DNA of 63,847 nt, counting the filler, from Dugesia japonica (Eukaryota): the NCBI GenBank assembly GCA_001938525.1. It is 6 parts of 6 records of this genome, joined end to end, with 100 filler letters (N's around TTAATTAATTAA, not from the genome) between each part and the next. Parts side by side here need not be neighbours in the genome. Positions count along the whole stretch, not along the records: positions 39,299 to 55,510 come from MQRL01635201.1; positions 55,611 to 63,847 come from MQRL01583147.1; 4 more parts are not named here. The stretch is one strand, 5' to 3'. Position numbers and translations under genes: made by a program. Position 1 is the first letter of the stretch. Each line of letters opens with the position of its first letter. Positions 15,438 to 63,847 of this stretch are shown here, piece after piece. The notes beneath the pieces are model-generated. The model searched no databases and was not told the origin of the DNA. It was given only the letters and a program-made list of their open reading frames with translations.

Positions 15438-16442
15438 TTATATCCAGGTAGGTTTTTGATATCCATGCCATTTTACATAATATTGTTTTTTCCTTTTTGT
15501 TCCTTTCGATTTTATTATTTTTTTGATTCTATATGTAGTAGGAGGTGCAATGACTTGTAATTCTAGCTCATAAAACCTTTCTTGTATAATATTATTCTCA
15601 TAATCTTTAATTACGTACATGACTGGATTTTGTTTGGTATTGATTTTCGATATTTAAAGCACTTCATCACTCCAATTACTATCAAAGTTTTTAATGAATG
15701 GAGATGCGCTTATTTTTGAGATTCTAACATGGTCATCGACTTTATATTTTGGTTTCTTATTTGCTTTGCTTTGATTACGCGATAACTATAATTTTACTTC
15801 ATTATTTGAACTTAAATCAACCGGTCTTGCTCCATTTAAACCTTTATAACTTGAATGATTATAACTATTAATCGATTTTGACAACACATTTATCCAGGTT
15901 TTATTGCCACTATGCACAAAGTATTTTTTCAAAGCATCTCTTAATTTAAGATTAAATCGCTCTACATGTGCTGCTTTATACTGAGAGAATAAAGTATAAT
16001 GGTTTATGGATATATGTGATAAAAGATTTTTGACTTTAGAGTTGTAAAATTCCTTACCTAAATCAGTTTGCAAATTATCCGGATGTCCATCTTTAAACAT
16101 TGATTTAATGGCCGGTTCCATATCATTTGCGGATTTCGATTTGACGGTAATAGCTCTTGCAAATCGACTGAATACATCAATATATGTCAAAATATATTTG
16201 ATTTCTTTATTTATTTTTGAATACGGGATCATCTCTATCAAATTCATTTGACATAAATCATCAATTCCAAACGTTTTGTATGCTCTTTTCAAAATTGGTT
16301 TGTTCAAACTGTACGCCAGTTGACTCGATAACCACTTTTTTGTCTTGGTTTTGGTTTTTTGTGCTGCTTACATTAATTTTTCTACGCCACTAAAACCTGC
16401 GGGATTTTTTGCGTCTGTCCAAATCGTCTTCAGCTTGCCCAT
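15438..16442 (-). pseudogene. int: Polinton retroviral-like (rve) integrase with C-terminal chromodomain
   Basis: NPAGFSG..WLSSQLAYSLNKP, YIDVFSRF, LQTDLGKEF, KAAHVERFN, YKVDDHVRISK and YYVKWHGY. Stops present. Confidence 0.93.
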
Positions 16443-24339: not shown

Positions 24340-25262
24340 TAGTGTGTTACTTTTCCCGACATTTTTGACTCCTGAATCCCGGGGTTTCACTATTATTAAT
24401 TTCTACAATAAAAGATTTTGGGTTTTGTTTGTTTAAAATCAGAACAAAAATCATAAACATGTTTATTTAAATTTTTTTAGGGAGAATTTAATAAAAATAT
24501 GAATAATATATTAAATTTCATTCAATCATATCAAATCACTAAAGTTTGATTTAAATATAAAAAATTAATAACAAAACAAACAATAAAAAATTTTAATGGA
24601 TTTAATTCATTTAAATTTGATTTATTTAAGGAAAAAAAAATTAAAAATTATGGTACCTATTGACTATTGAGTACCTCACCTAGTATGGTACCTATTGTGT
24701 GTGTCCTACTTTAGTTNNNNNNNNNNNNNNNNNNNNNNNNNNNNNNNNNNNNNNNNNNNNNNNNNNNNAAAATAATAAAATATATATAAAATGAATATAT
24801 ATTTTATTCTTTTTATGAATTTCCATAAAATAAGTTTTAAGGAAACATAGTTTATTAATTAACTTGTCGGTTAAATTTAATCGTTTTTTGGAGCAAAAAT
24901 TTGACGAAGTAGAGAACACTGGTTTGCTCTTCGTAGATGTTGGTTGAATAGAATTAAGAGCATTAAATTTTTTTTCTAAATTTGGTGTCATCTTACCAGT
25001 GCCTTCAAACAACAACAATTCTTTCCTCAATATTTGGTTCAAGTTCATAGTAATAGTAGTTGGAGTAGGTACACAATTTTTTCGATTCTTCAATTGCAAT
25101 TTTTAATCTTCTTTTTAATTCTTCTTCTAGCTCTGAAGTCGAAATCGATTTCGATATAATATCACTAGTAATAACCATTTCATTTTCATCACCATTCCCG
25201 GGTTTCGGGAAATGCAAAACTAAGTAATTTCCAGGTAAATTTATATCGGGAGTAACACACTA
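24340..25262 (-). mobile_element. Internally deleted hAT DNA transposon
   Basis: 12-bp TIRs TAGTGTGTTACT (24340-24351) and AGTAACACACTA (25251-25262). 8-bp TSD ACAATGAC/ATAATGAC. Dimerisation-domain remnant IQPTSTKSKPVFS..KRLNLTDKLINKLCFLK. Confidence 0.9.
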
Positions 25263-36298: not shown

Positions 36299-36955
36299 AT
36301 GGCTAGTAAAAAACAAGTTATTAGTAAACTAAAACAACAAGAAGTTTTGGGTATAAATACTTCATATAATAGTATAAATAATTTAGCAAATCTTGAAAAA
36401 TTTACTATCACACAAATTGAAAGTTTTGTTAAATGTGAAATTACTAATAAAACAGNNNNNNNNNNNNNNNNNNNNNNNNNNNNNNNNNNNNNNNNNNNNN
36501 NNNNNNNNNNNNNNNNNNNNNNNNNNNNNNNNNNNNNNNNNNNNNNNGTTTCTAAATTTTGTGAATCAGAATGTAAGAGTAAATTAATAAATCAATTTTC
36601 TAAACAAGATGAAAGAAATATTGAAATTATAAAACAGTTAGAAATTGATTACCAAAAAGAAAAGGATGAAAATAATAAATTAATGGAACGATTAAATTTA
36701 GCTCAAAAACCAAAATTTATTGAACATCCAGGTTTAAAACTTACATTGATAAAATATGAAGATGATGATGATTTAATTATTACAAATGATGATTGTATTA
36801 ATATTGCTAAAAAAATAAAAGAAAATAGTGATGATTTATGTGAAAGGTTAACAAGATTAAAAGTTCCAGAAGAATATGAAGGAGATATAAAAAGAGTTTA
36901 TGCAGCTAAAAGTGATTTACCAAATTATACAGTAAAAACTTCAAACATGAAATAA
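36299..36955 (+). CDS. Unknown coiled-coil protein, paralog 2 (spans N gap)
   Basis: Tandem paralog of 35784-36275. Confidence 0.62.
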   Translation: MASKKQVISKLKQQEVLGINTSYNSINNLANLEKFTITQIESFVKCEITNKTXXXXXXXXXXXXXXXXXXXXXXXXXXXXXXXVSKFCESECKSKLINQFSKQDERNIEIIKQLEIDYQKEKDENNKLMERLNLAQKPKFIEHPGLKLTLIKYEDDDDLIITNDDCINIAKKIKENSDDLCERLTRLKVPEEYEGDIKRVYAAKSDLPNYTVKTSNMK

Positions 36956-37002
36956 GTACCTTTAAAGTAGTNTTTTATATAATCAAATTTTTTATTTATA
37001 AA

Positions 37003-39198
37003 ATGAATAGATATAACAAAAATATTATTAGTGGGAATCAATGCGCTTTAACAGTTGATTTTAAATGTCCTGTTTGTAACAAGACATTTATAAACAACGC
37101 AGGGTTGTCGTCGCATATCCAGTCTCGAACCTGTGCAAGATCAGTACACGATTATTACACATGTAACATATGTTACAAAAGATTAGCAAGTGAAAAAGTC
37201 TTGCGACTGCATAAAATCTCCACAAATTGTGGAAGTAGTAAAGGTTCTGCAGGGATTGGTGTGATTCCGTTGTATTTTAATATCTGCGATCATAAATTCA
37301 CAAGAAAAAATCATGCTCAATCACATTTCAACAGTGATTTACACAAAGAGTGTGTTAAAAAATTGAATGAAGAAAAAGTTAAAGAATTATTTGATGAATT
37401 ACCTTGAAATGATGCAATTGAATTTGATAATAATGAAATTCGAAAGTTATTTAAACATTTGAAAAATATAAAGTATTATAATATCGAATATTTTAANNNN
37501 NNNNNNNNNNNNNNNNNNNNNNNNNNNNNNNNNNNNNNNNNNNNNNAAAATATAAAGTATTATAATATCGAATATTTTAAAGAAAGTAAAATTGAATTAA
37601 CAAGAAATATAAAAGCATTACATTGTAATTTAATAACCTGATTTAAAAAAGAAATTACTAAAATTGTTGATTTATATTTTGATTATTCGAAAAAGTTTAT
37701 ATTACGATTGAGCGTCAATTTTAATTATAATAAAGAAGATGAAGAAAGAATATTTAATTCATATTCTAGTAATGAAAGAATAACAATCAAAAGTGATGTT
37801 GAAATTAAAGTGCAAGAGTTATTAAATCAACTTCAAAGATATATGGAGGATGAAGATCAAATTGAAAGTGGATGGAATTTGAATTATATAGTTGATTTTA
37901 AAATTGAACTTTCTAAATATCAATCATTAGTTGGCTCAAGTTATGTAAAATTACCTTTTATTAAACCTGGTGTAATTAATATTACAAATAAAGATAATTG
38001 CTGTATTTTATATTCGATTTTAGCTCATAAACATTTATTTAAAGATCAACCAACTAAAGTTTCAAAATATATTCCTTATTTAGGGGAATTAAATACAACT
38101 GGAATGAAATTTCCATCAAATATTGATAATGTAAAATTACTTGAAAAATTAAATAATTTTAAAGTAAATGTTTTTGAAGTAACTGAAAAAGCTAAAATCT
38201 ATCCTATTTATATTTCACATTATGAAAGTAACCCAAAACAAAATGAAAATAANNNNNNNNNNNNNNNNNNNNNNNNNNNNNNNNNNNNNNNNNNNNNNNT
38301 AAATGTTTTTGTAAGTACTAATAATTATAAAAATAAATTGTGTTTGTGTTGTATGGATTCATATAGGAGTAAAGATTTATTAACAAAACATCAAAATGAA
38401 TGCATTAATCACGACGCAACTAAATTATATTTTGAAAATGATAAATATTATTCATTTAAAAATCATCATTTTAATAATGAATTGGCTTTTGTATTTTATG
38501 CAGATTTTGAAAGTTGGACAGATGTAAAAACTAAAAAACAAAAGCCTTTATCACTTGGAATTTATGTAGTAAGTAAATATCCACATTTAATTCAAAATGA
38601 ATACAAAGAATTCTTTGGAGAAAGTATCCATGAAGATTTCTTTCAATTTTTAGAAGAAATTAATAATAAATTAATTGATATTAAAGAAAATAAATTAATT
38701 GAACATTATACTGGAACAGATCATCCAGAATTTATTCTAAAGCAAAATTGTAGATATTGTAATAAAAATATAACTGAAAATCCTGTTTTAGATCACAATC
38801 ATTTTAATGGAAAATTTAGAGAATATGCTCATTCAAATTGTAATTTGAAAGATAAATCTATAAAGAATATATTTATTACTTTTTATTTTCATAATGCTTT
38901 AGGTTATGATAATCATTTGTTTTTTAAAGAATTATTAACAAAATATTCAACAGAAGTTAAAAGAATAATACATCATAATGATGAAGTTTATATTTCCTTT
39001 GAATTTAGACATATTAGATTTTTAGATTCAGCAAGAATGTGTCCATTTACATCAATTGATACAAGGGGTAAATTATTAAATCAATCAGGAAAATATTATC
39101 ATTTAAAATCATTTAATCTTGTTCCAAAGAAAATATCATTTCCATATGAATATGTTAAAGGAGAAAATATTAATCAAGTTATTGAATTATTAAAATCA
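37003..39198 (+). pseudogene. polB: pPolB N-terminal half with three N-terminal zinc fingers
   Basis: ORFs at 37003, 37459 and 37708 share one frame, with TGA at 37405 and 37639. Motifs ESGW..GSSYVKLP..VINITNKDNCC, FYADFES (Exo I), DHNHFNGKFREYAHSNCN, FHNALGYD, FLDS and FPYEY. Confidence 0.92.
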
Positions 39199-40960: not shown

Positions 40961-41194
40961 AAAAATTGTTGATATTGTTTTAAAATTTAGAAATTAAATT
41001 GTGACAAAAATTAATCAGTAATACCTTTTTATTCACTAGTTTATTAAGAAACCAATAATATTGCGAGAAAATTTTAAAATACCACAACGTAACATATTGT
41101 TGCATTAACACATTATTATTCATGAACATAATAAAGACTAATTTAAAATAAATAAAAAACATTTATTAATACATATCAAAACATGTACATTTTC

Positions 41195-41520
41195 AACTAC
41201 AATGATTTTTTAACCATAACAGACAATGTTGACCACATGTCTTTGTAAACGGATATTGAATTCTAATTCTATTATATTCAATTGGTTTTGATATTCTTGA
41301 GAGATGCGAGACCAACATTTGCGGATAAAAAAACCAAGCATATCAAAAACTAATATATTTATAGGTTTATGGTAAACTGCTATCCAATGTTCTCCACCGA
41401 GATTTGATGTGTGTGTATTGAAGATTATGGCTTTATTAACTGGAAAGTATGGAAGCTTGTCTAGGGGATACACTCCTAACCATGTTGAGCCAAGCCACTT
41501 TTTCCCGATTTGATTAATCT
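41195..41520 (-). pseudogene. Adenain protease copy with 1-nt frameshift
   Basis: GVYPLDKLP..GEHWIAVY..VFD, then a frameshift in an A-run before IQYPFTKTCGQHC. Confidence 0.88.
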
Positions 41521-41857
41521 TAAAAGAACTATTAAAATAAAAAATAAATTATATAATTAAGTATGCTTCATAACATATATTGATTATACCACATATTGTT
41601 TACNNNNNNNNNNNNNNNNNNNNNNNNNNNNNNNNNNNNNNNNNNNNNNNNNNAGAAATTAAATTGTGACAAAAATTAATCAGTAATACCTTTTTATTCA
41701 CTAGTTTATTAAGAAACCAATAATATTACGAGAAAATTTTAAAATACCACAACGTAACATATTGTTGCATTAACACATTATTAGTCATGAAAATAATAAA
41801 GACTAATTTAAAATTAATAAAAAACATTTATTAATACATATCAAAACATATACATTT

Positions 41858-42185
41858 TCAACTACAATGATTTTTTAACCATAACAGACAATGTTGACCA
41901 CAAGTCTTTGTAAACGGATTTTGAATTCTAATTCTATTATATTCAATTGGTTTTGATATTCTTGAGAGATGACAGACCAACATTTGCGGATAAAAAAAAC
42001 CAAGCATATCAAAAACTAATATATTCATAGGTTTATGGTAAACGGCTATCCAATGTTCTCCACCGAGATTTGATGTGTGTATATTGAGGATTATGGCTTT
42101 ATTAACTGGAAAGTATGTAAGCTTGTCTAGGGGATACACTCCTAACCCTGTTGAGCCAAGCCACTTTTTCCCGATTTGATTAATC
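41858..42185 (-). CDS. Adenain-like (C5) cysteine protease
   Basis: Catalytic H (GEHW), D (VFD) and Q/C (IQNPFTKTCGQHC) are intact. The true start is uncertain and may be spliced. Confidence 0.88.
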
Positions 42186-42295
42186 TTTAAAGATTTATTA
42201 AAATAAAAAATAAATTATATAATTAAGTATGCTTCATAACATATATTGATTATACCACATATTGTTTACACTAATGCCTTTTAATCCAAGTTCAA

Positions 42296-45935: not shown

Positions 45936-47995
45936 GAAAAGAAAGTTTAAAGTAAAAGAAAAGATTGTGGAAATTTTCACTAGTTTTAAAAACGTTTATC
46001 TAAATTTCAAAGATTTTTAAAACGTTCAAGTAAATTTAAGAATTATTTCCTTGCTCTTTTACATGGGATATTTTGATTTTAGAAAAGTTCCTGTATATTT
46101 TGACTAGTTTCAAAGGTTCTAGTAAACTTTCAACAAGATTTTTAAAGTTTGTATAATTATCAACGATTAGAAAAAAGTTCTAATAAATTTTCATCAAGTG
46201 AAAAAAAGTTCTAGTAAATGTTTAATCATGTCTTAAAAATTCATGTAAATTTCAGATAAAATTATTTGACTTCATGTAAATTTGATAATATTATCGCACT
46301 CTTTCTAGTCATCATTGGTATTAGCTTCTTCCCGTTCTTGTTCATTTTTCTAACTTAATACAATAAAACATATCAAAGAATAAAGTTAAACCTAATTTTG
46401 TTAAATAATAATAGAATAAGTATTATTTGTTTGTCAATTTGTTGTTCTATGTAATAAATATTGATAAATTATAATGTAGTAGAACCTACTTCAAAAATTT
46501 GTTTATTGAATATATCTGGCTTAATGATCTTATATTTATGGATAAAACCCATATTTTCATTGTTAAAACCAGTATTTTTATGCTAAAACCCCTGTTTTCA
46601 TTAAACCTAAATTTTCATGATAAAAGCATTATTTCCACGATAAATCTTATATTTACCATTACCAAACCATGTTCTTGTTGCTGAGATCATAAATTTATCT
46701 ATTAAAACTAATATTTTCAATGATAAGATCATTATTTTCTATGTTGAACTATTATTTTCTAACATTGTATTTAAATATTGTCTATCAAAATGAAAAAAGA
46801 AACCTATAAAATCAAAGAGCAAGCAAAGAAACCAATGATCAAGCAGAGAGCCAAGTAGTAAACAAATAAGCAAAAGGATAATCAGATGATGAAAATATAC
46901 TGAAATAGTTATATTATTTTAAATAAAAAGCATATTATATTAGGACTCACTCAATCTTATTGTCTTCTTTTAATAATATATGACACTTTTTAAAGATTAA
47001 TGAAGTGAGGTCTATGAAAATATGAAGTTAAAATATGCAATAAGACATAATAGAAAATAGAGAAAATAAAGCTAAACATAGCTAGATGTAACTAAATAAA
47101 GGTAAATCAGGAAAATATAGGGTAAATGATCGAAAATGACTAAAGTTTGGGAAATGGTGGCAAAATAAGGCAAAACTGATAAAAAGAAGATAAATTAAGC
47201 ATATTAAATGACTAAGTATAGAATAAATACAGTATAATTAGTGACTAAATTTACTCTTTTAAATATTTTCTATGTCCAAACTCATATTTTCTAATAGTAA
47301 AATTTATATTTTCTATGATTGCTCAATAATATTTCTATAGTCCATAGTTTTTTTATGATGAAACTCATATTTTCAATATTGAAACCATATAATAATGTTT
47401 ACATTATAGTCTAAAGTTGGATTCTACTGATTGATGATTTGGTGTTTAAATTATAAATAAACCCATGAACACCAAGGTGCATACAGGTTTGTCAAAGTGC
47501 CCACAAGAATACTAATGTGCAAGCAAAGATGAAAGCAAGTGGTGAAGGATTTTATTGAAAGGAATACTTATATTAAACAAGATAATACTCTTATATTTTT
47601 TCATGTTGAAACTATATTGAACTCAAAGTGTAATGGACTTATCCAATAAAATAAACCATTACTTATTAATAGTGGCTTTTCTTAACACGTAATCATTCAA
47701 TAAAACTAAAACATGTCTTTTTATTGATATTCAAAGCTTATTATATAAATATGAACAAAATATGAAGAAATAGGGTAAATGATGGGTGAAACAGATCAAC
47801 ATATAGGAAAATCGGGCAAAATTTAAGCAGTAGGACAAATGATTGGGGAATCGGGCAAATCAGGTAAAATATGGTAAAATGAAGTAAACAGTGGAAATAA
47901 TGTACAAATATCGTAAAAAACAGGATGATTAATATTTCAATGTCTATTGACAAAGTTATAAATAACTTAGTATTATTTATCTATTTAAATAAAAA

Positions 47996-49150: not shown

Positions 49151-49654
49151 AACTTAGTCATAATTTTGTAGATTGGATGTTATTATAAATTATTCAATGG
49201 TTACCTTTATCTATTTAAGATTTTTATTTTTATCAATTTAACCCATTTTGAGTCCATTGTCTCTATTTTATCTACATATTCGAGCTGAGTTTAGTTATTT
49301 TAGTGTCAATTCCTGTCATTTTGTACTTTTACATTATTTTCCCTGTTTTATCCTATTTTTTCCACTCTCTTTCCCTTTTTTTTATCATATTTCTCATTAT
49401 TCACATTTATGTAATAAATTTTGAATATTAATAATGAGACTTGGTTTAATTTATTGAATGATTACGTGTTAAGACAAGCCACTAATAATAAGTTATGGTT
49501 TATTTTGTTGGATAAATCCATTATAATTTGAGTTCAATGTAGTTTCAACATGAAAACAATAAGAGTATTATCTTGTTTAATATAAGTATTCCTTTCAATA
49601 AAATCCTTCCCCACTTGTTTTCATCTTTGCTTGCTCAATAGTATCCTTCTTGGT

Positions 49655-50730
49655 GGTGCTCCTTTATTTAGGTATCGAGTTTCCTCGTCTTTATTTACTA
49701 ACCCTTCTATATGTCCTGCTTCTTCATCTGGTTCAATTGCATTGAAGTAATTGTATCTATTTCTATGTTGGATCCCGCTGTATCTGCTGCTGATCCTTTG
49801 GCATGTTCTCTCATTTTCTCTACATTCTGTTGATCTATGACCCGTTCTACCACACTGAAAGTATTTCCTTTTCGCGTAATTCTGTCTCATGTGACCAGGT
49901 TCTCCACAACCAAAACATTTCATTTCCTTTTTTAACGTACAATCTCTATTCAGATGTCCTGCTTTATGGCATATCCAACATTCACTTGTTTCATTCTGTG
50001 GGCAATGTGGTCTCGTGTGGCCCGGTCTATGACAACTTTAGCATTCTATTCTATCATTTACTCTGCTAATATCTTCTTGTTTCCGAACCGGAGATTTTAC
50101 CTGCTTCAGCGACCCTTTTTCCAATACATTAGAATAACTTCTCACTACATTGATATGTTCTTTCTCTTCCTCCAATTTATCTAGTAATATTAATGTATGT
50201 TAAATTCTTCCACTGTTTTTAATTTTTGCAGTATCACTTCTTCCCGTATTCTACTACTTCCACGAGCGTTTACCAGTATTTTCATCACCAGTCCCTTATT
50301 CGACAGTTTTTTTATTCAAAAATACTATCGACTAACAATTCTACTTTTTCGATAAATGTGTCAACTTTTAACTTGCCCTATCTAAAGACAATCAATTTCT
50401 ATAGTTTTTCTACAATGTCTTTATCTTTCTGAAATGCTAGTCTCAATCTTGACTGGAAGCCCAGTGTTTTTTTTCGCAGTGTTTAAATATTTATCAAACA
50501 ACTTTGAATCCAACACGCAAGTTACCAATTTTTCTTGTTCATTAGAGTTAGAAATCCTCCGAGTTCCCAAATACAGCTGTTTAATAAAGGATTCCAAGTC
50601 ATCCTTTTTTTCAATATTCTTTGGCAGTATCCGTTCGGTTATTCAATCGATATTAACCGCTGACACCATGTTATATTTATCTGGATTCATTTAAAAGGCT
50701 AAATATATATATATAACCAAATTAATTAAA
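49655..50730 (-). mobile_element. gag: Gypsy 5' fragment: LTR end, PBS and gag with four zinc knuckles
   Basis: ..TAACA|TGGTGTCAG at 50668 (Leu-tRNA-like PBS start). Knuckles CHRPGHTRPHC, CWICHKAGHLNRDC, CFGCGEPGH and FQCGRTGHRSTEC. Confidence 0.85.
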
Positions 50731-52881: not shown

Positions 52882-53790
52882 ATGATATCAAGTCAAGAAA
52901 AATCGTCGGGACACTTTAAAATGAATTTCACTGACGAAAATTTCAGTGNTGATCCTGAGAAACTACCAGAATTTTTAATAATAATTTATGACGTATACTC
53001 AAAGGTTAATAATTTGACAGAAACCGAAAATATCTCCAGATTAATATCATGTATGACTGGAGCAGCTAAAAGATAATATCTCGATAAAAACAAACAACTA
53101 ATCAAATTGCCAAGCTTATGGGATAGAGCCAAAAAAATTCTCACTGATAATTTCACCAGCCAAAGAACAATAGGCCAAGAATTTAAAATATTTGCAAGTC
53201 GACTACAAAACAAAGATGAATCATATCCCACCTATGCTAGTGAACTCAAATGACTTGGTAAAATAGCATACAAAGGAGAAGTATTCGATGATCATATATT
53301 TACCATCTTTATCGATGAGATACGAAACAATGAAGTCAAAAAGTAAGTAGCAATGAATAGACAAAAATCAGTTGAGGAAGCAATTGGGTTACCTATGCTA
53401 ACCAAACTAGTCTGCAAGCGATCAGAATGAATCTTTGCCGTAGAGGAAGAAAAAAACAGCACTTAAAAATAGAACAATTTATAGCTAGAACATAAGCATT
53501 AATGAAACCATTCACATCTAGACAAGACAGAAATAATAACATGCAATCTAATTTTCGACGAAATAATAAAAAGAAAGCAATAGAAATAAGTTTAAAACAT
53601 GTAATGCAAGAGAACAAAAGGGTAACTGGGTGACCAAAATTCTAATTTCAGGAGATTCCACAACACAGAACAATATACTGCAACTATTTCGGAAAGAATG
53701 GACACTTGAAAAGAGATTGTTTCAAAGAAACAAGTGTTATTATTGCAACTAAATGAGTCACACCAGCCGAGATTACTTAAACAGTAGAGG
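52882..53790 (+). pseudogene. gag: Gag of giant Gypsy element
   Basis: LISCMTGAAKR, major homology region RLQNKDESYPTYASELK*LGKIAY, knuckles CNYFGKNGHLKRDC and CYYCN*MSHTSRDY. Confidence 0.85.
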
Positions 53791-53999
53791 TAGAAAATGG
53801 AACTCCTTCAGCATTTTGAATAATACAAAAGTGCAAAAGATAATGATGAAAAATTAAGACTTAAAACGACAGTTGACTGAGAATCAAAAAAATCAGCAAC
53901 CAAAAAGAATTAATATGGTCACGTAAGATAATTAAAACGCTCAGCAGTATGCTGAATGGCAAAAAGTAGCAGCTAGAGATCATCAAGCTCAACATGAGC

Positions 54000-54430
54000 C
54001 ACACAAAAACTTAATTAATATATTAAGATCGACATGCTACTATAACGAAACCAGCTTTAGTGAGATAGACGAATATTTCTGCTCAACAGAAGTAAATGTT
54101 ACGAAAGCTTCATAAGCGATTGATGAAATGAAGTTGTTACATATAAATTCTCCCGAATTAATAAAAATTAATTAAATAATAAAGGAAACATTTGGGGTAC
54201 GAGACTTTCTAAGCGTAGTATGCGAGTTACTGCGTGATGGAATTACAAAAGGCAAAGCACTGGTAACCATAGCGTTCCTATTTTACCAGGCTATATACAC
54301 ATTGTCAAAAGACAATCCAGCAAAGTTCCCAGACGAATGACAGATCCGCATGACAGGAATCATACAAAGAACGATTGAACCATGGATCCACCAACAGGGT
54401 ATTTGGTCAGCTTTCATTAAATCAGTGTCA
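54000..54430 (+). pseudogene. Bcl-2-family domain inside the retroelement
   Basis: One frame with stops at 54113, 54173 and 54338. BH1-like FLSVVCELLRDGITKGKALVTIAF, BH2-like IEPWIHQQGIWSAFIK, weak BH3-like KAS*AIDEM. Confidence 0.8.
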
Positions 54431-54491
54431 TCACAGAATTGCAATCAAAAGCACCTTACAACAAAAGTGAAAAAAGTGTTAAAAGCACTAT

Positions 54492-55510
54492 ATGTTCAGT
54501 GTCATGTTACCGATTTTAATTATGCTAGTGTTGTTAATATTACCTGGAACACATGGAATGGTTACGTTCGATTGCGATGAAATGGACTTCGAAGATAAAG
54601 TTTACTCCTTAATAAATACAGATGAGTGCCCTGGTGCGAAGCCAGTACAATTGTGGCCTATAAAAAAAAATTCGGTCTATCAAATATATCAAGAGTCAGA
54701 ATATTACCAAGCTATGGTAAAAGAGTGTAAAGTAACAGTAGCAACCTTTGTATTTAATTGTGGAAATAAGATTTGGTCATCAGTGATCGACACAGGATAA
54801 GAAAATAAACCAGTATTATTATCTAGACAACAATACAAGCAAGGATTTTCGTTTGGGAAGATAGACGTGAAAATAGGGAACACGGTAACAGCTAAATGGG
54901 ATTTGTAAGCAGTCAACAGTTAATCACAGTTCGATCAATATAACCAGTAGACGGACAATGTACAACGGGTTCATATACGATAAATGTAGTAGTAGCAAAA
55001 AATGTGGTGGTAATAAAAAATTACACAGTGGAATTATAAGAATTTAAAGCACTATTTGATGTAGATGATTTAACAATGAAAACAAAACCAGCGTGTAGAG
55101 CGTCAGACAAATCATGTAGTTTAGGAATATCAACACTGGTATACGATGTAGATCTAAAGGAATGTAAAATGACCTTTTTAAAGAAGGTAATATTTAACGA
55201 ATATCAAGGAAAGCGTTATCAAGAACGAAAAGAAAAGTTAGAATCGTTTACAGAGAGTAAAACGTCAGATAAAGCCACCGAGAATGACCACAAGGATCGA
55301 AAATGAAATGAGTGGACGCACCAATTGTATTGGTATCAGTTAGCGGGAAAGATTGAATCAGACTAATAAAAGATAAAACAATATCATAATGTGAAGGAAT
55401 TGTATATAAAACAAATAATAAAGGCGTACATATCTCAAAACAAAAGTTAGCAGGAGCACAGCATGTCAATGGAAACGAAGATATAAAGCTACACTTTTAT
55501 GTTAATAATA
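54492..55510 (+). pseudogene. env: Envelope glycoprotein N-terminal half, chuvirus G-like (class III)
   Basis: Signal-like hydrophobic stretch, then VTFDC..YSLINTDECP..YQIYQ..VKECKVTV..FNCG. Ends IVYKTNNKGV..EDIKLHFYVNN at the contig end. Confidence 0.75.
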
Positions 55511-55610
55511 NNNNNNNNNNNNNNNNNNNNNNNNNNNNNNNNNNNNNNNNNNNNTTAATTAATTAANNNNNNNNNNNNNNNNNNNNNNNNNNNNNNNNNN
55601 NNNNNNNNNN
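55511..55610. other. Artificial contig linker
   Basis: N44-TTAATTAATTAA-N44. Confidence 0.97.
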
Positions 55611-56197
55611 AACTCAATGATTTCTTGCTCAAGTGCCTCTATATATTGTTTCTGGAATTCATTTTTCTGCTGGCATTCTTGTATAATAGATTCGAACTCG
55701 AGAGACAGTTTATCGATGCCAGTGCGTACACCTTCTCTATTAGCCAAGCTGGTTAGGAGTTGGTTTTCTGTAGCTAATCGGTGTTTTTCGAATTGGGTAT
55801 TAAATAGTTCCGTTCTCAATAATTGAGTGTTTTCTTGTTCTATAGTTAGTTGAATTTCCAATTCTTTACGTTTAGGTTCTACGTTTCCGTAATAATTTTT
55901 CCATTCGCGAGCCTGTTTTATCGCATTTATTTTTGCTCGGTTTGCATCAATGTTGCTCTTGATATATTTTTGGTGGGATTTGCAGGATCGTTTTTTATTT
56001 TCTAGCTCTTGGTGCGCTCTTTTGACTTGACTTTCCAACTCACTATTATATTTTTGTAATTGTAAATTGAAGAGGGCATCTATTTTAGCTTCAAGTTTCC
56101 ACTTTAAGACCTCAGGTACAGTGGTAAGGGTTTGAGTTTGAACCTGTAATATTCGCATTTCGTTACGCAAATGATTTATCAAGTTTTCAGTGTTCAT
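55611..56197 (-). CDS. Long coiled-coil accessory protein (truncated by contig end)
   Basis: 195 open codons rich in E/Q/K/L with heptad character. Confidence 0.65.
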
Positions 56198-56288
56198 TTC
56201 TAAAATCAGATAGGGTGATTAATTTATTATAATACTATTTTGACAATTATAAGTATATATGCATTATTTACATATTTAAATTTATTTA

Positions 56289-56440
56289 TCATTGAAATTT
56301 TATCCCTAATGCCCTACGTTCAATTACCTTTGGGCACATAGGGCATTCGTTTAAATTTATCGCGCATCTATAACAAGTTTTGAAGTGCTCACATGGTAGA
56401 AATATGATCTCTATAGTCCCTTCGAGGCAAATGATACATT
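56289..56440 (-). pseudogene. C-terminal C3HC4 RING finger of IAP/MDM2 type
   Basis: CIICLEGTIEIIFLPCEHFKTCYRCAINLNECPMCPKVI, followed by a stop 10 codons later. Absent from the ORF track. Confidence 0.88.
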
Positions 56441-58876
56441 CATTATCTAATAATACCCATTCTTGTTCGTATTTTACTTGAGGTTCTACTAGTTTACGTG
56501 ATCTTTGATATAATTTGTATGGTGTGATTAACTCCGAACCTTTCTCGGTGACTGTTTTTTTTATCAGTTGCTTGATATTTTCCGACTTGTCTTTAAGATA
56601 TTATGCAGCCTGTTGTAGTGGATATGGTCCTGGTTGCCTATATTGTTTCCATCCCGCCATTTCCTGATTTATTATCGAATGTACCTCTCTATCTTGGGTA
56701 ATTGTTATGCTTCTTTGTCCTATCTCTTTCCCCTTTCTGTCCCACACGACCGTTTTGTGTTGCATATACCGCCATATCATAGTATGGTAAAGGTATTCGT
56801 TTTTGGGACATATTTTTGTTACCTGTTCTCCTGTATCTTTGGTTACCCATTTTTGTGCTTAAAGTTATTTTCTGAATAATACATTGCAAAGTTAACTTCT
56901 CGTGCGAGTTCGAATTCATTGTTCGCTTCGTAGACTAATGGATTTTTTTCGTGTTTTAACGTTATATCCCATATTTTTTCCATCTGCCACTTGTAGGTGT
57001 CAAACATCAATAATTTTCCTTCTATTGGTTCTTGACTTAGGAATTGTATGATGATTCTCCCTTTTACTTGATGCAGTTTAATCATAGTGCTTTTTTGACT
57101 TTTGATTACTGGTGTTAGAATTAATTGTCCGTAACTGTACAGTGTTTGGGTTCTCTGTTCCCTCCGGAGTCCCGTACGCCTTATTGTTTTGACGTGTATT
57201 TTTTTCTCCTTGATGAATATTCGGTGTTCTGTTAGGACTGGTTCGTTTACCTGGCATTCCTGCCCTCTGATCCCCTTTATGATCATTATTATGGTTGTCA
57301 GTATAATTTGCACACTAGGAATTCCATTCTGAGGTTTTACTTGTACTTGCTGCATTGCCGATGTTGGTAAAGAGAGCTCTACGAGAATTATTCTTGTGAT
57401 CCTGTACAGCACTAGTGACATAGACAGTCCTCTTCAGATATTTCCGATAATTCTCATTGTCCACCAAATCAATATGCCATAATCCCAACTTTTGTTGATT
57501 ACCGCCCATAACAAGAGAGATGTTTTGACTATTATTTCGACTATAATCTCCTTCTTGCTTCTTTGTAGTAACTCATTTTTTGATTTTCTTGGTTCCGTTT
57601 GATCTACCTCATCTGGCATTAATGTCGCTTTCATTTTATTTGCCTTCCCCGACATTATTCCGGCTACTTGTCTTTCTTTTTTCTCCATTTCGTCCCATTG
57701 ACTCTGAACTGTCTCTCTCTTCGATTCCCTTTGTTATTTAAGCCCTTCATGGGAATTTGCGATATTGATTGGTTTCGTTTTCTTCCAAGTTAATTTACTC
57801 TGGATAATTGGTATGGTCATGCTCCCTGGCAATTGGATCTCCAATGGTTCGTATACTCTAATCCAGTTCCATTGTACTAATGTATGGTGAAATAGATGAA
57901 TAGATGCTAACAATTCTTCGCTGTATACTTCGGTACAAGATAGACACAACTTTCTTAAGGTGGATTGCCGGAAAGGTGCTTCAATTGGTAATTGGATTTG
58001 TGACCCTTCACAATCTTTTTTGAACCCATTTTCCCGTCTTGATAAGCATGTCTTCTGGTCGTATATAGCCTTTAGAGTGATTTTTAGTATAATTTGCGTC
58101 TTCTTTATACATTGTGAACAATTTCCTAGCAGCTGAATTTCTGACAGTGGACATGTTATCTTTCTGATATGAACACAAATCTCCTATGTTCTAGGTGTTT
58201 GGATTCCTTGATATGTGATTGGATAGATTGTAGAGGCGCTCATAGCTTCTATCATAAGTGATCGGCGTATTTGGTTACCTGAATTGAAAGACAATGTTTT
58301 AGCCTTTTGCTTCATAACAATTTTTTTATTATTAACCAACGCCGCACTTTGCTGTATTTGCTGGGATTGAATATTACTCGGTGCATGTTTGATTCTACCT
58401 ATTTTACTTGTTTGTTTTAACCCCGAAAAATTTGGTGGGGTACTTATGATTGTACTACCATCCTTAGCTTTTTCTTGGTTAACGGCGTATCTAAAAACAT
58501 TCATCTTTAATACCCTAGTTATCTTTTGCAATTCTGTTTCTGTTTTTTCTGAATTTGCAGCAGGTAGGCCCGTTTCTTGTTTTACGTTTTTCTCTTTTTC
58601 CGATATTAATCCTTTCCCGTTTTCTTTAAACTCAGTTTTCACGCTGAGACTGTTTTCCTTTGACGTTGTTTCCCTTCTCCTCCATGGTCAGTGATTTATT
58701 AATGATTTCTTGAGTAACATCATGGCTTGTTGTGACCGTAATGGATAGCTGTGTGAAACACTTAATTCTATTCTTTTCGACTTCCGAGGCCGCCTTGGCC
58801 CTCTATGTTCCGTTGCAGTGGGCTCGGTGCTTGTGACCGGTGCAGCTTCTTCTGTCACTGCTGCCTTTTTGCACAA
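56440..58876 (-). pseudogene. Post-integrase polyprotein extension (basic linker, CxxC region, hydrophobic segments)
   Basis: ORFs starting at 58876, 58642, 57949, 57688 and 57421 are all in the integrase-core frame. One frameshift at about 56850 leads into the RING frame. Confidence 0.65.
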
Positions 58877-58879
58877 GTA

Positions 58880-60000
58880 GGCGTGGTAGATCTTTGGCTT
58901 CTCTAGTAGATTCCCTTTCTTTCAAACCTTGAGGTTAGTTTCCGTTACTTCGATTACTTCATAAGGTCCTTGCCATGGTCTTTTTAATTTTGATGTCGTA
59001 CCGACACAAATGTCTGGTAAATTGATTAATACCATGTCGCCCTTTTTAAAGGAGTGTTTTATTGCTGATTTATCGTGTAAATCCTTATAACTCTCCTGGT
59101 GGAATCCTACGTTCTCCTTGGCCTGTTTTCATATTTTCTGCATAGTTTCTTTGAAGTTTGCGGCGAAATCGGTTTCGTCTTGATATTGTGTTATTGGTGG
59201 TTGGAATTCCAAGTCAATAGGCATGTTACACTCTCTGCCATACATGAGACCGAACGGCGTGTATTTAGTAACAGGGTGCACACTCATTTGATATGCGAAC
59301 AGGCATAGCTGAATATGTTTATCTCAGTTATTTTGTTCCTTTTGGGCGTAACTAGATAACATATTGATCAAGGTTTTATTAAATCGTTCTGTTAGTCCAT
59401 CTGTTTGTGGGTGATAAGGTGAGGTTCGTAATTGATGGATTTTAAGGAAGTTTGATATTACTGCTAAGATGTTACTCATAAAGTTCTTCCCCTGATCCGT
59501 CAATATTTTCTTTGATGTACCATATCTGCTGAAGAATTTTAGCACCAAAATGTCTGCTATAGTGGTTGCTTTCTGATTCTTCATCGGAAATGCCTCTGGA
59601 AATTTGGACAGATAATCCATTATGGTAAGTATGCAGATATTTCCGCTTAGGGTTGGTGATAATGGTCCAACTACATCCATAGCAATGATTTCCATTGGCG
59701 CCGCTGGTACGGCAATGGGTTTTAATAACGCTTTTACTCTTTTCCTGTTCCTCTTCTGGCAGCACATATTTGGCATTTAGCAATCCATTCCTTCACAGAT
59801 TCTATGATATGTGGCCAGTAATATTTCTGTCTTAATTTGGATTCGATTTTCTTGTGAGACATATGTTCTCCTAGTACCCCATTGTGATATTGTACAAGTA
59901 GCTTATACCGTCTTGCCTTAGGGATAACTAACACGGTATTATCTCCATCCTGAGCTGTCAACCATCACTTGGTAAGTGCATACCGACCACCGTTCTTCTT
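58880..60000 (-). pseudogene. Gypsy integrase
   Basis: HNGVLGEH..KYYWP..KCQIC, IAMDVVGP, ILTDQG, RTSPYHPQTDGLTERFN and KLKRPWQGPY. Confidence 0.95.
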
Positions 60001-60149
60001 TAGGTGCTCCTTCATTTTAGGTTCACATTCTAGCTTCTCTAAGTTATAATTTTGCATATATTATGTGATGATTTTGATTTCTTCGTCTTCAGCTTGTGCT
60101 TGTTTTAGTCCATCAAAATTTTGATCTTCCGCTAGAATGAAGTATACCA

Positions 60150-60800
60150 CTTTTAGATTCCATTTACGTAATCGCACAAAAACACTACGCAAGTCATTGA
60201 GGTGCCCTTCAAAGGTTGGTGAGTAGATCAGTAGATCATCGATATAGGCCATACTTTGGCCTATATCGATATGCCGTGGGTTACGCAATTCATCATTCGT
60301 TGGAACGAGGCTGGCGCGTTAGTAAGCCCGAATGACATCCGGAAAAACTGGTATAAGTCTTTGCTTGTGGAAAAAGCCGTTTTCTCCCTATCTTCTGGTT
60401 TGATTTTTATTTGCCAATAACCGCTTCGCAAATCCAACGTGGTGAATATTTTAGCATTACACAGTAATTTCATTAATTCGTTGATATCTGGCAATGGATA
60501 CGTGTCTTTCTTAGTTTGAGCATTTAACCTTCTGTAATCGATACAGATTCGTTGTGTCCCATCCTTTTTATCTACTAACAACACTGGCGACTGCCATGGT
60601 GAACAGCTAGGTTCTATTACACCGATCTTCACTAATTTAGCTGTTTCTTTATTTGCAAATTCCTTTTTTACCACTGTCATGGCGTATGGTTTCTGTTTGC
60701 ATAGGGTTTCGTCTGTTAGTGGAATCGTATGCATTGTCGCTGTGCACCTACCCAACTCTTCATCATTCCATGCAAAGATATCTCTGAATTCTTCTTGCAG
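60150..60800 (-). pseudogene. Gypsy reverse transcriptase; RT thumb and RNase H deleted at about 60150
   Basis: SPWQSPVLLVDKKDGTQRICIDYRRLN, LDLRSGYWQI, FGLTNAPASFQR and AYIDD, then an abrupt jump to the pre-integrase linker (LKQAQAED). Confidence 0.95.
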
Positions 60801-61208
60801 TTGCAGTATCGCTTGTTTCTGTTCCTCCGATAAAGTTTCCGTTTCTACTTTAAACGTTCTGTCGATTTCTGGTTCAACGGCTACTTCTTCTATTACGTCC
60901 GGATCTGGTTCGATGGGAGTTAGTGTACCCATTCTGGAGTTTGGTTTGATCGTAATATATTTTTCCGTGAAGTTAACTAAACTCACTGATACTTCACCAC
61001 TTTTGTTGACCATGGTTATTCCTCCTGCTGTAGGTAACAAATCCGTCATATGGTTCGAAATAACAATCTCCTTCATAGGCGCTTTTGGTGCTGACTACAC
61101 AATATACTTGGCATCTGCTAGGTACCAAAATCTCTTCTGTAGTAAATACTTTGTGGTCCTTCACATGGGTATACCCCTCCAGTGACTGTAATCGTAATGT
61201 TGACAAGT

Positions 61209-61500
61209 TTAATATCCGTTTTTCATCAAGACTGGAAGAATTTCTGTTCCCAGTATACATTGTCCCATCATTTCTATTATGATCATATTATGTTTAATTT
61301 TGTTATCCTGATATTCGACTTCACAGGCTAATTCACCAAAAATTTTGAGGCTACTACCATTTGCCACATCTGCTGTAGTGTTAGTGGGTAATATGTTTCT
61401 GTATTCGGTTATCACAATTTCATCTATTGATAACAACGATATGGTTGCTCCTGTGTCCAATAGAGCTGTTATGGGTCGGCCATTTGATTTTAACCATAAT
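61209..61500 (-). pseudogene. Aspartic protease 2
   Basis: ITALLDTGATISLL, flap VANGSSLKIFG, CILGTEIL. Confidence 0.9.
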
Positions 61501-61809
61501 AGTTAGTACTGGTCCGCCGTTGAGACTTGTGCATACCACATCCGAAGGGTTATGACTGGTGTTCGATTGTGTTTTGTTTTTCCATCTTGGTTCTCGTTCT
61601 TGGAACTTTTTCTAATCGTCCCTTATCACGGTGGCTGTATTGGTGATTTTCTGACGATCTTGATTTGAATTGTTTTGTTTCTTTCGGCCAGTTGGCCGCT
61701 GTCGCCGCCGGTTGGGTGTTAGCTGATTCCATTGTTGTGGTCGTTTCCGTTGGGTTATTATTCGAGTTTTCTGATATCCTACCGGTGCATATTCCTGATC
61801 ATAATTTTC

Positions 61810-62115
61810 CCGTATCGTTAGTTTTCTCAAATCCAATATTCCTCCAGGACAGAGGCGTGACAAGAGGTCCAACCCCAATAGACAGTCGAATGTCACTTCG
61901 TTCATTATTTGTAGTTTATGTCAGAGCCGAGTTCCGTCGCTTTCTATTGCACATATTGCTTCTCCCACGGGGCAGATTTTTTCTCCAGAGGCAGTGATGA
62001 AAACTCCTTTAGTGATTGTTATTCTAAGTAGGCGATAGTCTTCTAATATTTTTTATGGACTAACGTCGTACTTGCTCCTGTATCAATAAGGGCTATTGCC
62101 CATCTTCTGTCGATT
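61810..62115 (-). pseudogene. Aspartic protease 1 (additional retropepsin)
   Basis: AIALIDTGASTTLV (DTG at 62084-62076), frameshift, flap ITASGEKICPVG, then DCLLGLDLL. Confidence 0.85.
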
Positions 62116-62525
62116 TTTTATCCTTTTCTGTAATAATTTTGCTTTCTGAGAAATCATCATACATACGGTTTGAGTCTCTAACTTATCANNNNNNNNNNNN
62201 NNNNNNNNNNNNNNNNNNNNNNNNNNNNNNNNNNNNNNTACGGTTTGAGTCTCTAACTTATCATCCTCCGTAAGTTGGTTATTTTGAGTGCGCAAGTTTT
62301 GTTCGATTACTCTTCGGTCCATAGTTGATACATTATTCTCTGTTAGTAGTGCCATATTCGGGGCTTGTGGTAGGCTTATATACGGATTATTGTACATGGG
62401 ATTTGGTGCCCATACTTGTTGAGGTGGTTGGTTCATGGGTTGCCAACCATGTTGCGGATAAGCGTTATAATACATTTGTGCTGGTGCTGGCGTGCTTTCT
62501 TCTCCTCCGAATTTTAACGCGTTTT

Positions 62526-63847
62526 TCAGTCGTTGCATTTTGCTGATCTTTTCGTATTGCTGCCTTTTGAATTCCACATCGTATTCCAAGGCAGTCTTAT
62601 AACTAGGTACATGAAGTGTTCCACTGCTTTCTCATCGTCGCTGCTATTACTACTTTCATCCTTGTTTTTAAATATTTCCTTAAATTGATTGAAATATGAT
62701 ATTTTCTTTTTAGCATTGCTCATTTCTTCGCATAACAATTGGAGTTGCATTAAGACTTCCTTGTCTGATCCTCTTATTTGTCCGAGCTTGCAAATGAATC
62801 TCTTTACCCTGTCAATATCCTTGGAGTGACTGTTAAGTACCATAGCTTTCACTAAAAATGGAAATATTCCCGTTACTATTTTCCAATTCACCTTCTTCTC
62901 TCTTTTGTATATATCAAAACACGCGTACAATTGAGTAATCACTACTCGTGTTACCGAAGTTATCAGCATAACTCCCAACAATCCTGCCATTGCTTGTCCA
63001 AATATGATGAATCGTCCCCACATTTTCCGCATGACGTTTTCTGTGACTTTTTGAAAGTGGTCTGTGGATAGTAATGCGTCGTAATTTACTCATCCGTCTA
63101 TGTTAGTTCCACTGGTTAATTGTACTATATTTGATAGAATTTGCATTCTTTGGACTGTGAACAGCATATATTCCCTGGTCTTCTCTAAATCTTCCCTACT
63201 ATAGATTCCTCCCTTGTTTACATCAATTGGAGTGAATTGCATACCTCCATTTAATCGTAACATGGAGAATTTTCGTGGCTCGATCCTCACTGCCATTCGT
63301 TGTGGAAATCTTATCCATGATCCATCTGTCATTATGTATTGTGGTCCAAACACATTAGAGCAGTTTATGATATTTGGCCTATAACCCAGTGGTGATATGA
63401 TTCGCGTAATTGGTTGCACTTAACGTTTTTCGTTGTTATGGATAATTTCTATCTCATTGTAGCAATTTTTTGGATTAGAAGAGAACTCCGCCTCTATGGC
63501 CTTGCATTTGTATAGGTACATAAATTCTCCTACTACTCTACCGAATTGTCCTTTTTCTAAAGGAAGTAGTGGAGTGACACTATCTGGGTTTGTAACCGCC
63601 ATTGCTAATTTTTTCTTTAATATTTCTTTATTTAATTTGCAGTCATTTTGAATAAGATCGTGGTACATACGTCTGATGGTATCTTGCATCCGATGGAACA
63701 GATTATCCATTTTGTTATTGGCGTACAGATGCAATTTGATATCCTATGACATCACGGTGGCTTGTGCTGTTTGTATTCGATGTTCCGACACGAATATTCC
63801 TTTGTAGTTCGTTTTATACACTATTTGCCCACACTTTGACATCGAAT
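62526..63847 (-). pseudogene. env: Envelope glycoprotein C-terminal half with TM anchor, chuvirus G-like
   Basis: DCKLNKEILKKKLAMAVTNP..VVGEFMYLYKC..CYNEI..PITRII..CSNVFGPQY..GGIYSREDL..WGRFIIFGQAMAGLLGVMLI. One frame with stops. Confidence 0.8.

Follow-up and report, generated by a model that had tools for sequence, protein, structure and literature searches.

Two decayed Burro-type Ty3/gypsy copies from the planarian Dugesia japonica and the domain order of their relatives

Introduction

Burro/GYPSM1 retroelements encode one polyprotein of about 4,900-5,100 residues which, as laid out in the text of PMC6431247, carries Gag, a ubiquitin/SUMO-like domain and BCL2, followed by an envelope protein (Env) that stands in frame ahead of the protease (PR) and matches mononegavirus fusion proteins. 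The same text places a dUTPase between PR and the reverse transcriptase (RT), lists BIR, ankyrin, Smc and MATH domains as well, and reports decaying Burro fragments in Dugesia japonica (PMC6431247). BURRO1 is described as abundant, active and PIWI-controlled (PMC8532177), and the excerpts of that paper and of PMC13238120 contain nothing further on domains. In addition, PMC13524379 lists nine flatworm elements with a glycoprotein B (gB)-type Env, six of them from S. mediterranea (Smed_errantivirus_1-6), and gives GAG-ENV-POL as the order in flatworms. Here we analyse a 63,847-nucleotide stretch of D. japonica DNA (GenBank assembly GCA_001938525.1), called the window below, in which the end of one contig and the whole of another consist of pieces of such Ty3/gypsy elements.

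We consider it very probable that these pieces are two decayed, non-allelic copies of two high-copy Burro-type subfamilies, whose intact relatives are encoded in one frame; the host is probably a planarian, in which these relatives would spread as enveloped particles.

Results

Two contigs carry copies of different subfamilies

The window DNA is AT-rich and repeat-rich and is made up of six contigs joined by artificial N44-TTAATTAATTAA-N44 spacers, which occur five times. Element pieces occupy the end of contig 5 (39299-55510) and the whole of contig 6 (55611-63847). Pfam scans covered the six frames concerned, with stops translated as X, and shorter pieces of them. The initial annotation had placed Gag, a Bcl-2-like domain and the N-terminal half of Env at the end of contig 5 on the plus strand, and the C-terminal half of Env, two proteases, RT, integrase (IN) and a RING finger on the minus strand of contig 6, and all of these domains were recovered with Pfam or with profiles, including those built from relatives (Table 1). 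The Gag capsid of contig 5 remained unnamed by Pfam alone and was found only with the profile from relatives. The Bcl-2-like domain, located directly before Env as in the Burro/GYPSM1 type, retains a BH2-like WI..GIW motif, and its BH1 motif NWGR is replaced or degenerate. The match of the contig-6 Env to PF24664 identifies this protein as gB/class III-type, and PR, RT and IN follow one another on contig 6 in the order of a gypsy pol.

The two Env halves are homologous yet non-identical, as had been noted initially, with 72 of 133 bases identical (about 55%) in a local alignment of their overlap. Because of this low identity, contigs 5 and 6, which are also not physically joined, do not represent halves of one element; they carry different subfamilies, that is, two non-allelic copies. 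Both copies are incomplete. The end of RT and RNase H, about 0.75 kb as judged by the relatives P0003 and P0005, are missing from contig 6, and other copies part from the contig-6 sequence at 60148. Many other copies diverge from the contig-5 sequence at 53994, and for this reason the contig-5 copy may have lost a ubiquitin-like domain. Between Env and the first protease of contig 6, an N50 scaffold gap with identical 25-base flanks looks like a junction of abutting contigs, and a mis-join at this site is possible.

Intact relatives encode the domains in one reading frame

When the Env C-half was compared with 1.84 billion representatives, 845 matches at E 0.001 or better were obtained. The best matches are long polyproteins with an in-frame protease and RT, and most of the best 150, which were listed, are stand-alone proteins of about 650 residues. 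From these 150, 17 relative proteins were picked by score and length and were joined by P0001 from another search; 15 of these 18 matched both window Env halves collinearly. A metagenome scan contributed three loci (L001, L002 and L003) from 370 candidates, and in the viral contig collection that was searched no relative was found.

A single reading frame of intact relatives spans the Bcl-2-like domain, Env, protease(s), RT and integrase. The open frame of L001 comprises 3426 codons with ubiquitin-like, Bcl-2-like, Env, three protease, RT, RNase H and integrase domains. P0002 matches the window Bcl-2 and both Env halves and has three proteases in one frame, P0006 shows a Pfam Bcl-2 match followed by Env, and L002 reads Gag-CCHC-ubiquitin-like-Bcl-2-like and, after one stop, Env. 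L003 has the order Gag-Env-PR-RT-RNase H-IN and is devoid of Bcl-2. A single frame from Env through RT and RNase H (RT_RNaseH match) is present in P0003, P0005, P0010, P0019 and P0041, and RNase H was found together with Env also in L001 and L003. Env lies in frame between Gag and Pol in L003, P0041, P0011 and P0013; the window copies are broken and unjoined, and the order within each contig fits. The domain order and the single polyprotein that had been predicted from the window alone are thus supported by natural relatives with open frames (L001, P0002 and P0003), with the stop of L002 ahead of Env.

An Env tree was built from 35 rows, namely the window and the 34 best matches that align over 250 residues. 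In this tree the window falls into a clade of 18 mostly polyprotein-embedded rows with 100/98 support, apart from 17 mostly stand-alone glycoproteins. Among the nine env-linked rows of the RT tree, the nearest to the window is P0001 with 57% identity.

Several relatives showed further features. In L001 (2-10282), extra hydrophobic segments flank likely surface domains between the second and third protease and after integrase, and a separate frame (10617-12107) matches an RNase T-type exonuclease. P0015 (1963 residues) has a long N-terminal cargo region ahead of its ubiquitin-like, Bcl-2-like and Env domains. P0005 is a complete Env-PR-RT-RNase H-IN polyprotein whose record describes it as a hypothetical protein and assigns it to a bacterial metagenome-assembled genome; it likely represents wrongly binned animal DNA.

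Protease number varies from one to four

Proteases were counted with a profile of RT-proximal proteases at an independent E-value (iE) under 1e-5, leaving out P0152, a cluster mate of P0013. The number across relatives ranges from 1 to 4, and seven relatives have two to four proteases in open frames (L001 3, P0002 3, P0003 3, P0004 2, P0007 2, P0011 4 and P0013 2); in P0003, one of the three is located after integrase. Among the nine relatives that are unbroken from Env to RT, three have several proteases and six, P0001 among them, have one. All 29 protease domains of relatives contain DTG and 23 of the 29 the C-terminal hydrophobic-glycine motif, a count that is partly circular as the profile favours DTG-type domains. 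The two proteases of the window share only 17 of 60 residues and, because of this divergence, their duplication must be old. With only 4 of its 27 inner branches starred, the protease tree is too weak to order the duplications; supported are the pairing of one window protease (PR-B) with P0001, that of the two P0013 copies and that of P0041 with L003, as well as a trio of Env-proximal copies.

The region downstream of integrase includes a RING finger

Integrase is followed on contig 6 by a long extension, for which no homologue was detected among 2699 candidates. Its Atlas matches were all at 0.85 or lower and nothing was concluded from them, and a single-sequence model with a predicted local distance difference test score of 49, which matched no fold at E 0.001 or better, was not used. 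The IAP-type RING finger then closes its own frame. No longer homologue of the RING region was found among 261 candidates, and the IAP-type RING motif was not detected in any relative protein or locus frame examined, including five with post-integrase tails. The initial annotation had assigned two apoptosis/ubiquitin modules to one element: a Bcl-2-like domain and a RING finger are each present, and no sequence seen carries both.

After integrase, P0003, P0005, L003 and P0019 show a signal-like stretch, a domain and a membrane anchor, a layout that suggests a putative second surface protein. In the window, hydropathy indicated a signal-like stretch near 57325 on the minus strand and no anchor.

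Both copies are decayed members of high-copy families

Stops were encountered in 3 of 173 codons of Gag, 3 of 392 of the Env C-half and 3 of 303 of integrase, together with several frame changes. As stops and frame changes affect both copies, neither shows the intact state of the gB-type errantiviruses, and both are probably dead relics. In two DNA runs, contig 6 was covered by 19,017 and 12,261 contigs and the contig-5 part by 4,308 and 1,851, mostly 85-95% alike in either case. Both subfamilies are high-copy repeats in one organism. Two RNA runs yielded 62 and 3 reads on contig 6 and 115 and 3 reads on contig 5, all of them less than 99% alike; related copies may be transcribed.

Table 1. 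Features of the two element copies in positions of the window
Feature	Position	Strand	Evidence and remarks
Gag capsid-like domain, decayed	52927..53388	+	profile built from relatives' Gag, iE 1.4e-7; 3 stops in 173 codons
Degenerate CCHC zinc-knuckle remnant	53679..53726	+	Pfam zf-CCHC, E 0.051, weak
Bcl-2-like domain	54143..54427	+	Pfam E 3.7e-4, below curated cut-off; phmmer to human BCL-2 chains, E 3e-5
Hydrophobic signal or signal-anchor ahead of Env	54492..54557	+	by eye from translation; same placement in relatives
gB/class III-type Env N-half, in three frames, cut by contig end	54558..55510	+	PF24664, E 1.4e-14 and 8e-5; collinear with relatives
Artificial spacer, contig 5 / contig 6	55511..55610		N44-TTAATTAATTAA-N44
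Separate open frame, likely coiled-coil, cut by contig end	55611..56197	-	coiled-coil by eye; 0 stops in 195 codons; no Pfam match
IAP-type RING finger closing its frame	56316..56447	-	Pfam E 2.3e-11; XIAP RING E 1.6e-9
Long post-integrase extension, no known family	56846..58867	-	4 stops in 674 codons; signal-like hydrophobic stretch (hydropathy)
Integrase: H2C2 zinc finger, core, C-terminal part	58868..59925	-	Pfam (zinc finger and core)
Reverse transcriptase, frame change ahead of YIDD motif	60148..60860	-	Pfam; alignment to relatives
dUTPase-like stretch between protease and RT	60930..61025	-	PF00692, E 0.0098, weak, below curated cut-off
Second, RT-proximal protease, open frame, with DTG	61221..61499	-	Pfam; profile iE 1.7e-16
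First retropepsin-type protease, split over two frames, with DTG	61846..62123	-	C-piece iE 1.4e-6; N-piece (DTG) iE 0.048
N50 scaffold gap between Env and first protease	62189..62238		identical 25-nt flanks
Env C-half, different subfamily	62904..63845	-	PF24664, E 3e-53
Env membrane anchor	near 63008-62952	-	hydropathy scan

Other elements of the window

Further gypsy pol fragments with RT-RNase H, RT and integrase core matches are located at 3693-4946 (-), 9128-9505 (+) and 15789-16367 (-). Weak matches to endonuclease VII and adenovirus-type C5 protease at 10871-11326 (-), 37642-39198 (+) and 41213-42214 (-) belong to what we take to be, in all likelihood, decayed Polinton/Maverick elements. 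A second CCHC gag-like piece and a nearby inverted copy (49336-50037 (-) and 47505-47822 (+)) are 84% identical, and a 616-base direct repeat (40989-42269; 97% identical) flanking an N50 gap is likely an assembly overlap. Also, 24695-25102 (-) gave a weak match to the hAT dimerisation domain, and a frame with C2H2 zinc fingers was noted at 36916-37404 (+).

Discussion

Retroviruses use frameshift or splicing. Retroviral-type proteases act as dimers, and elements normally carry one. What the sequences show directly are the domains, the order that they take in each contig, open frames in relatives, a high copy number and decay. From this anatomy, read together with general knowledge of retropepsins and of how membrane proteins are oriented, a different route of maturation can be proposed for the intact relatives. 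One long precursor would pass the membrane of the endoplasmic reticulum twice, first at the signal ahead of Env and then at the Env anchor. Gag, the ubiquitin-like and the Bcl-2-like domains would remain cytosolic, the signal would direct the fusion ectodomain to the lumen, and the anchor would bring proteases, RT and integrase back to the cytosol. Release of the parts would fall to signal peptidase and to the proteases that the element itself encodes, neither splicing nor frameshift being required. Proteases on the Env tail could dimerise there, extra copies aiding the pairing or cutting different junctions, and the Bcl-2-like and IAP-type RING domains might promote survival of the host cell or redirect ubiquitin. 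The two to four DTG-bearing proteases of seven relatives suggest how such a one-frame, membrane-threaded precursor may mature, and the Bcl-2-like and IAP-type RING cargo bears on the 2019 proposal in PMC6431247 that Burro elements interfere with host apoptosis and ubiquitin.

Going further, Burro-type elements might repeatedly multiply their protease (two to four catalytically intact copies, one of them after integrase), so that the polyprotein is processed by a specialised or self-pairing set, and this lineage might add a terminal IAP-type ubiquitin ligase, neither of which would have been described before. We offer this proposal tentatively and would expect it to fail somewhat sooner than to hold.

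Four other explanations were considered. The homologous overlap of the Env halves and their consistent order could mean that contigs 5 and 6 together make up a single element, but an artificial spacer separates them and the low identity in the overlap already refutes this reading, which has virtually no chance of being correct. It is just as implausible that Env is an endogenised chuvirus-like glycoprotein adjoining gypsy genes by chance: although PF24664 comprises viral fusion glycoproteins and stand-alone proteins prevail among the 150 matches listed, the top matches combine Env with in-frame protease and RT, the Env tree splits polyprotein Envs from stand-alone proteins, and the open frames of L001, L003, P0003 and P0005 already refute a chance neighbourhood.

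Improbable, too, is that the additional protease (the first one in Table 1) is peculiar to this copy or to its assembly (a mis-scaffolded repeat or a nested fragment) instead of a trait of the subfamily. About 65 bases separate this protease from the N50 gap upstream, the domain is split over two frames, the nearest relative P0001 has one protease, and none of the contig pieces listed bridges both domains. However, both proteases lie in a gap-free stretch that is covered in two DNA runs as deeply as the neighbouring regions, their residue identity is too low for a recent duplication, and the open frames of seven relatives contain more than one protease. More weight, short of making it likely, has to be given to the possibility that the RING finger is not the end of the polyprotein but a fragment of a host IAP, or else an accessory gene of its own that adjoins the element. 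Its frame differs from that of the post-integrase stretch, the motif was met in none of the relative frames examined, post-integrase tails included, and the candidates searched contained no longer homologue; yet the RING region is multi-copy with diverged copies (27 differences in a 230-base piece), it directly follows the post-integrase coding stretch, and an IAP-related BIR domain has been reported from Burro elements (PMC6431247).

Several observations weigh against our reading of the two copies as Burro-type relics of one-frame, enveloped elements. In RNA run X9, 0 of 62 reads on contig 6 and 0 of 115 reads on contig 5 were at least 99% alike. Among the sequences analysed, none links contig 5 with contig 6, or Bcl-2 with RING, and the RING frame is not that of the preceding extension; between the signal-like stretch and RING, hydropathy found no membrane anchor. 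The closest relative P0001 has a single protease, the Bcl-2-like stretch of L001 was defined by alignment and has no Pfam match, and, with its degenerate BH1 motif, the window Bcl-2-like domain has at most a putative anti-death role. Profile and Pfam scans found no ubiquitin-like domain in the window (L002 has one), and the six window frames scanned, which belong to partial copies, gave no match to the BIR, ankyrin and MATH domains of Burro1.

Regarding individual domains, PDB matches relate the cysteine/histidine pattern at the frame end to the C-terminal RING of XIAP/cIAP and the BH1-BH2 region to the BCL-2 family. In contrast to these cellular proteins, the window RING lacks an adjacent BIR domain, BH1 NWGR is replaced in the Bcl-2-like domain, and both domains reside in a retroelement. 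The gB-type errantiviruses share a gB-type Env between Gag and Pol (PMC13524379) and, by eye, Env motifs of Smed_errantivirus (YQES...KEC near the start and KCG..VY.TNY.GI..S closing the listed stretch), but they are intact and present in 1-215 copies, whereas the window copies are broken. The main text of PMC13524379 contains 'Bcl' and 'Burro' 0 times and 'protease' once and does not discuss cargo or protease number. In phrase searches of the open-access literature, multiple proteases and a terminal RING gave no match, the original Burro paper and Repbase lying outside this scope, and neither is mentioned in the text, as distinct from the figure, of PMC6431247. The doubled protease and the terminal RING may therefore be unreported, yet may already be known.

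With Burro-1 to -4/GYPSM1 as described in the text of PMC6431247, the window copies share Gag with CCHC knuckles, a BCL2-like domain directly ahead of Env (in frame in relatives), the series PR, dUTPase-like stretch, RT and IN, apoptosis/ubiquitin cargo, and accessory frames. They differ in that a ubiquitin-like match is missing from the window and RNase H has been lost from the contig-6 copy; Burro-1 to -4 proper exceed 30 kb and have long terminal repeats, and no long direct repeat was found in the two stretches searched. The element resembles Burro in how it works and in four tested features, but scans of these partial copies gave no BIR, ankyrin, MATH or ubiquitin-like match, and we therefore class it as Burro-type and do not assign it to Burro-1 to -4. 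The initial annotation had made novelty dependent on a comparison with Burro, and most of that novelty is gone, the architecture having been described for Burro/GYPSM1 (PMC6431247). The Gag-Bcl-2-Env-PR-RT-IN layout is already known from the text of PMC6431247, as is GAG-ENV-POL from that of PMC13524379, and the window mainly adds members of this kind.

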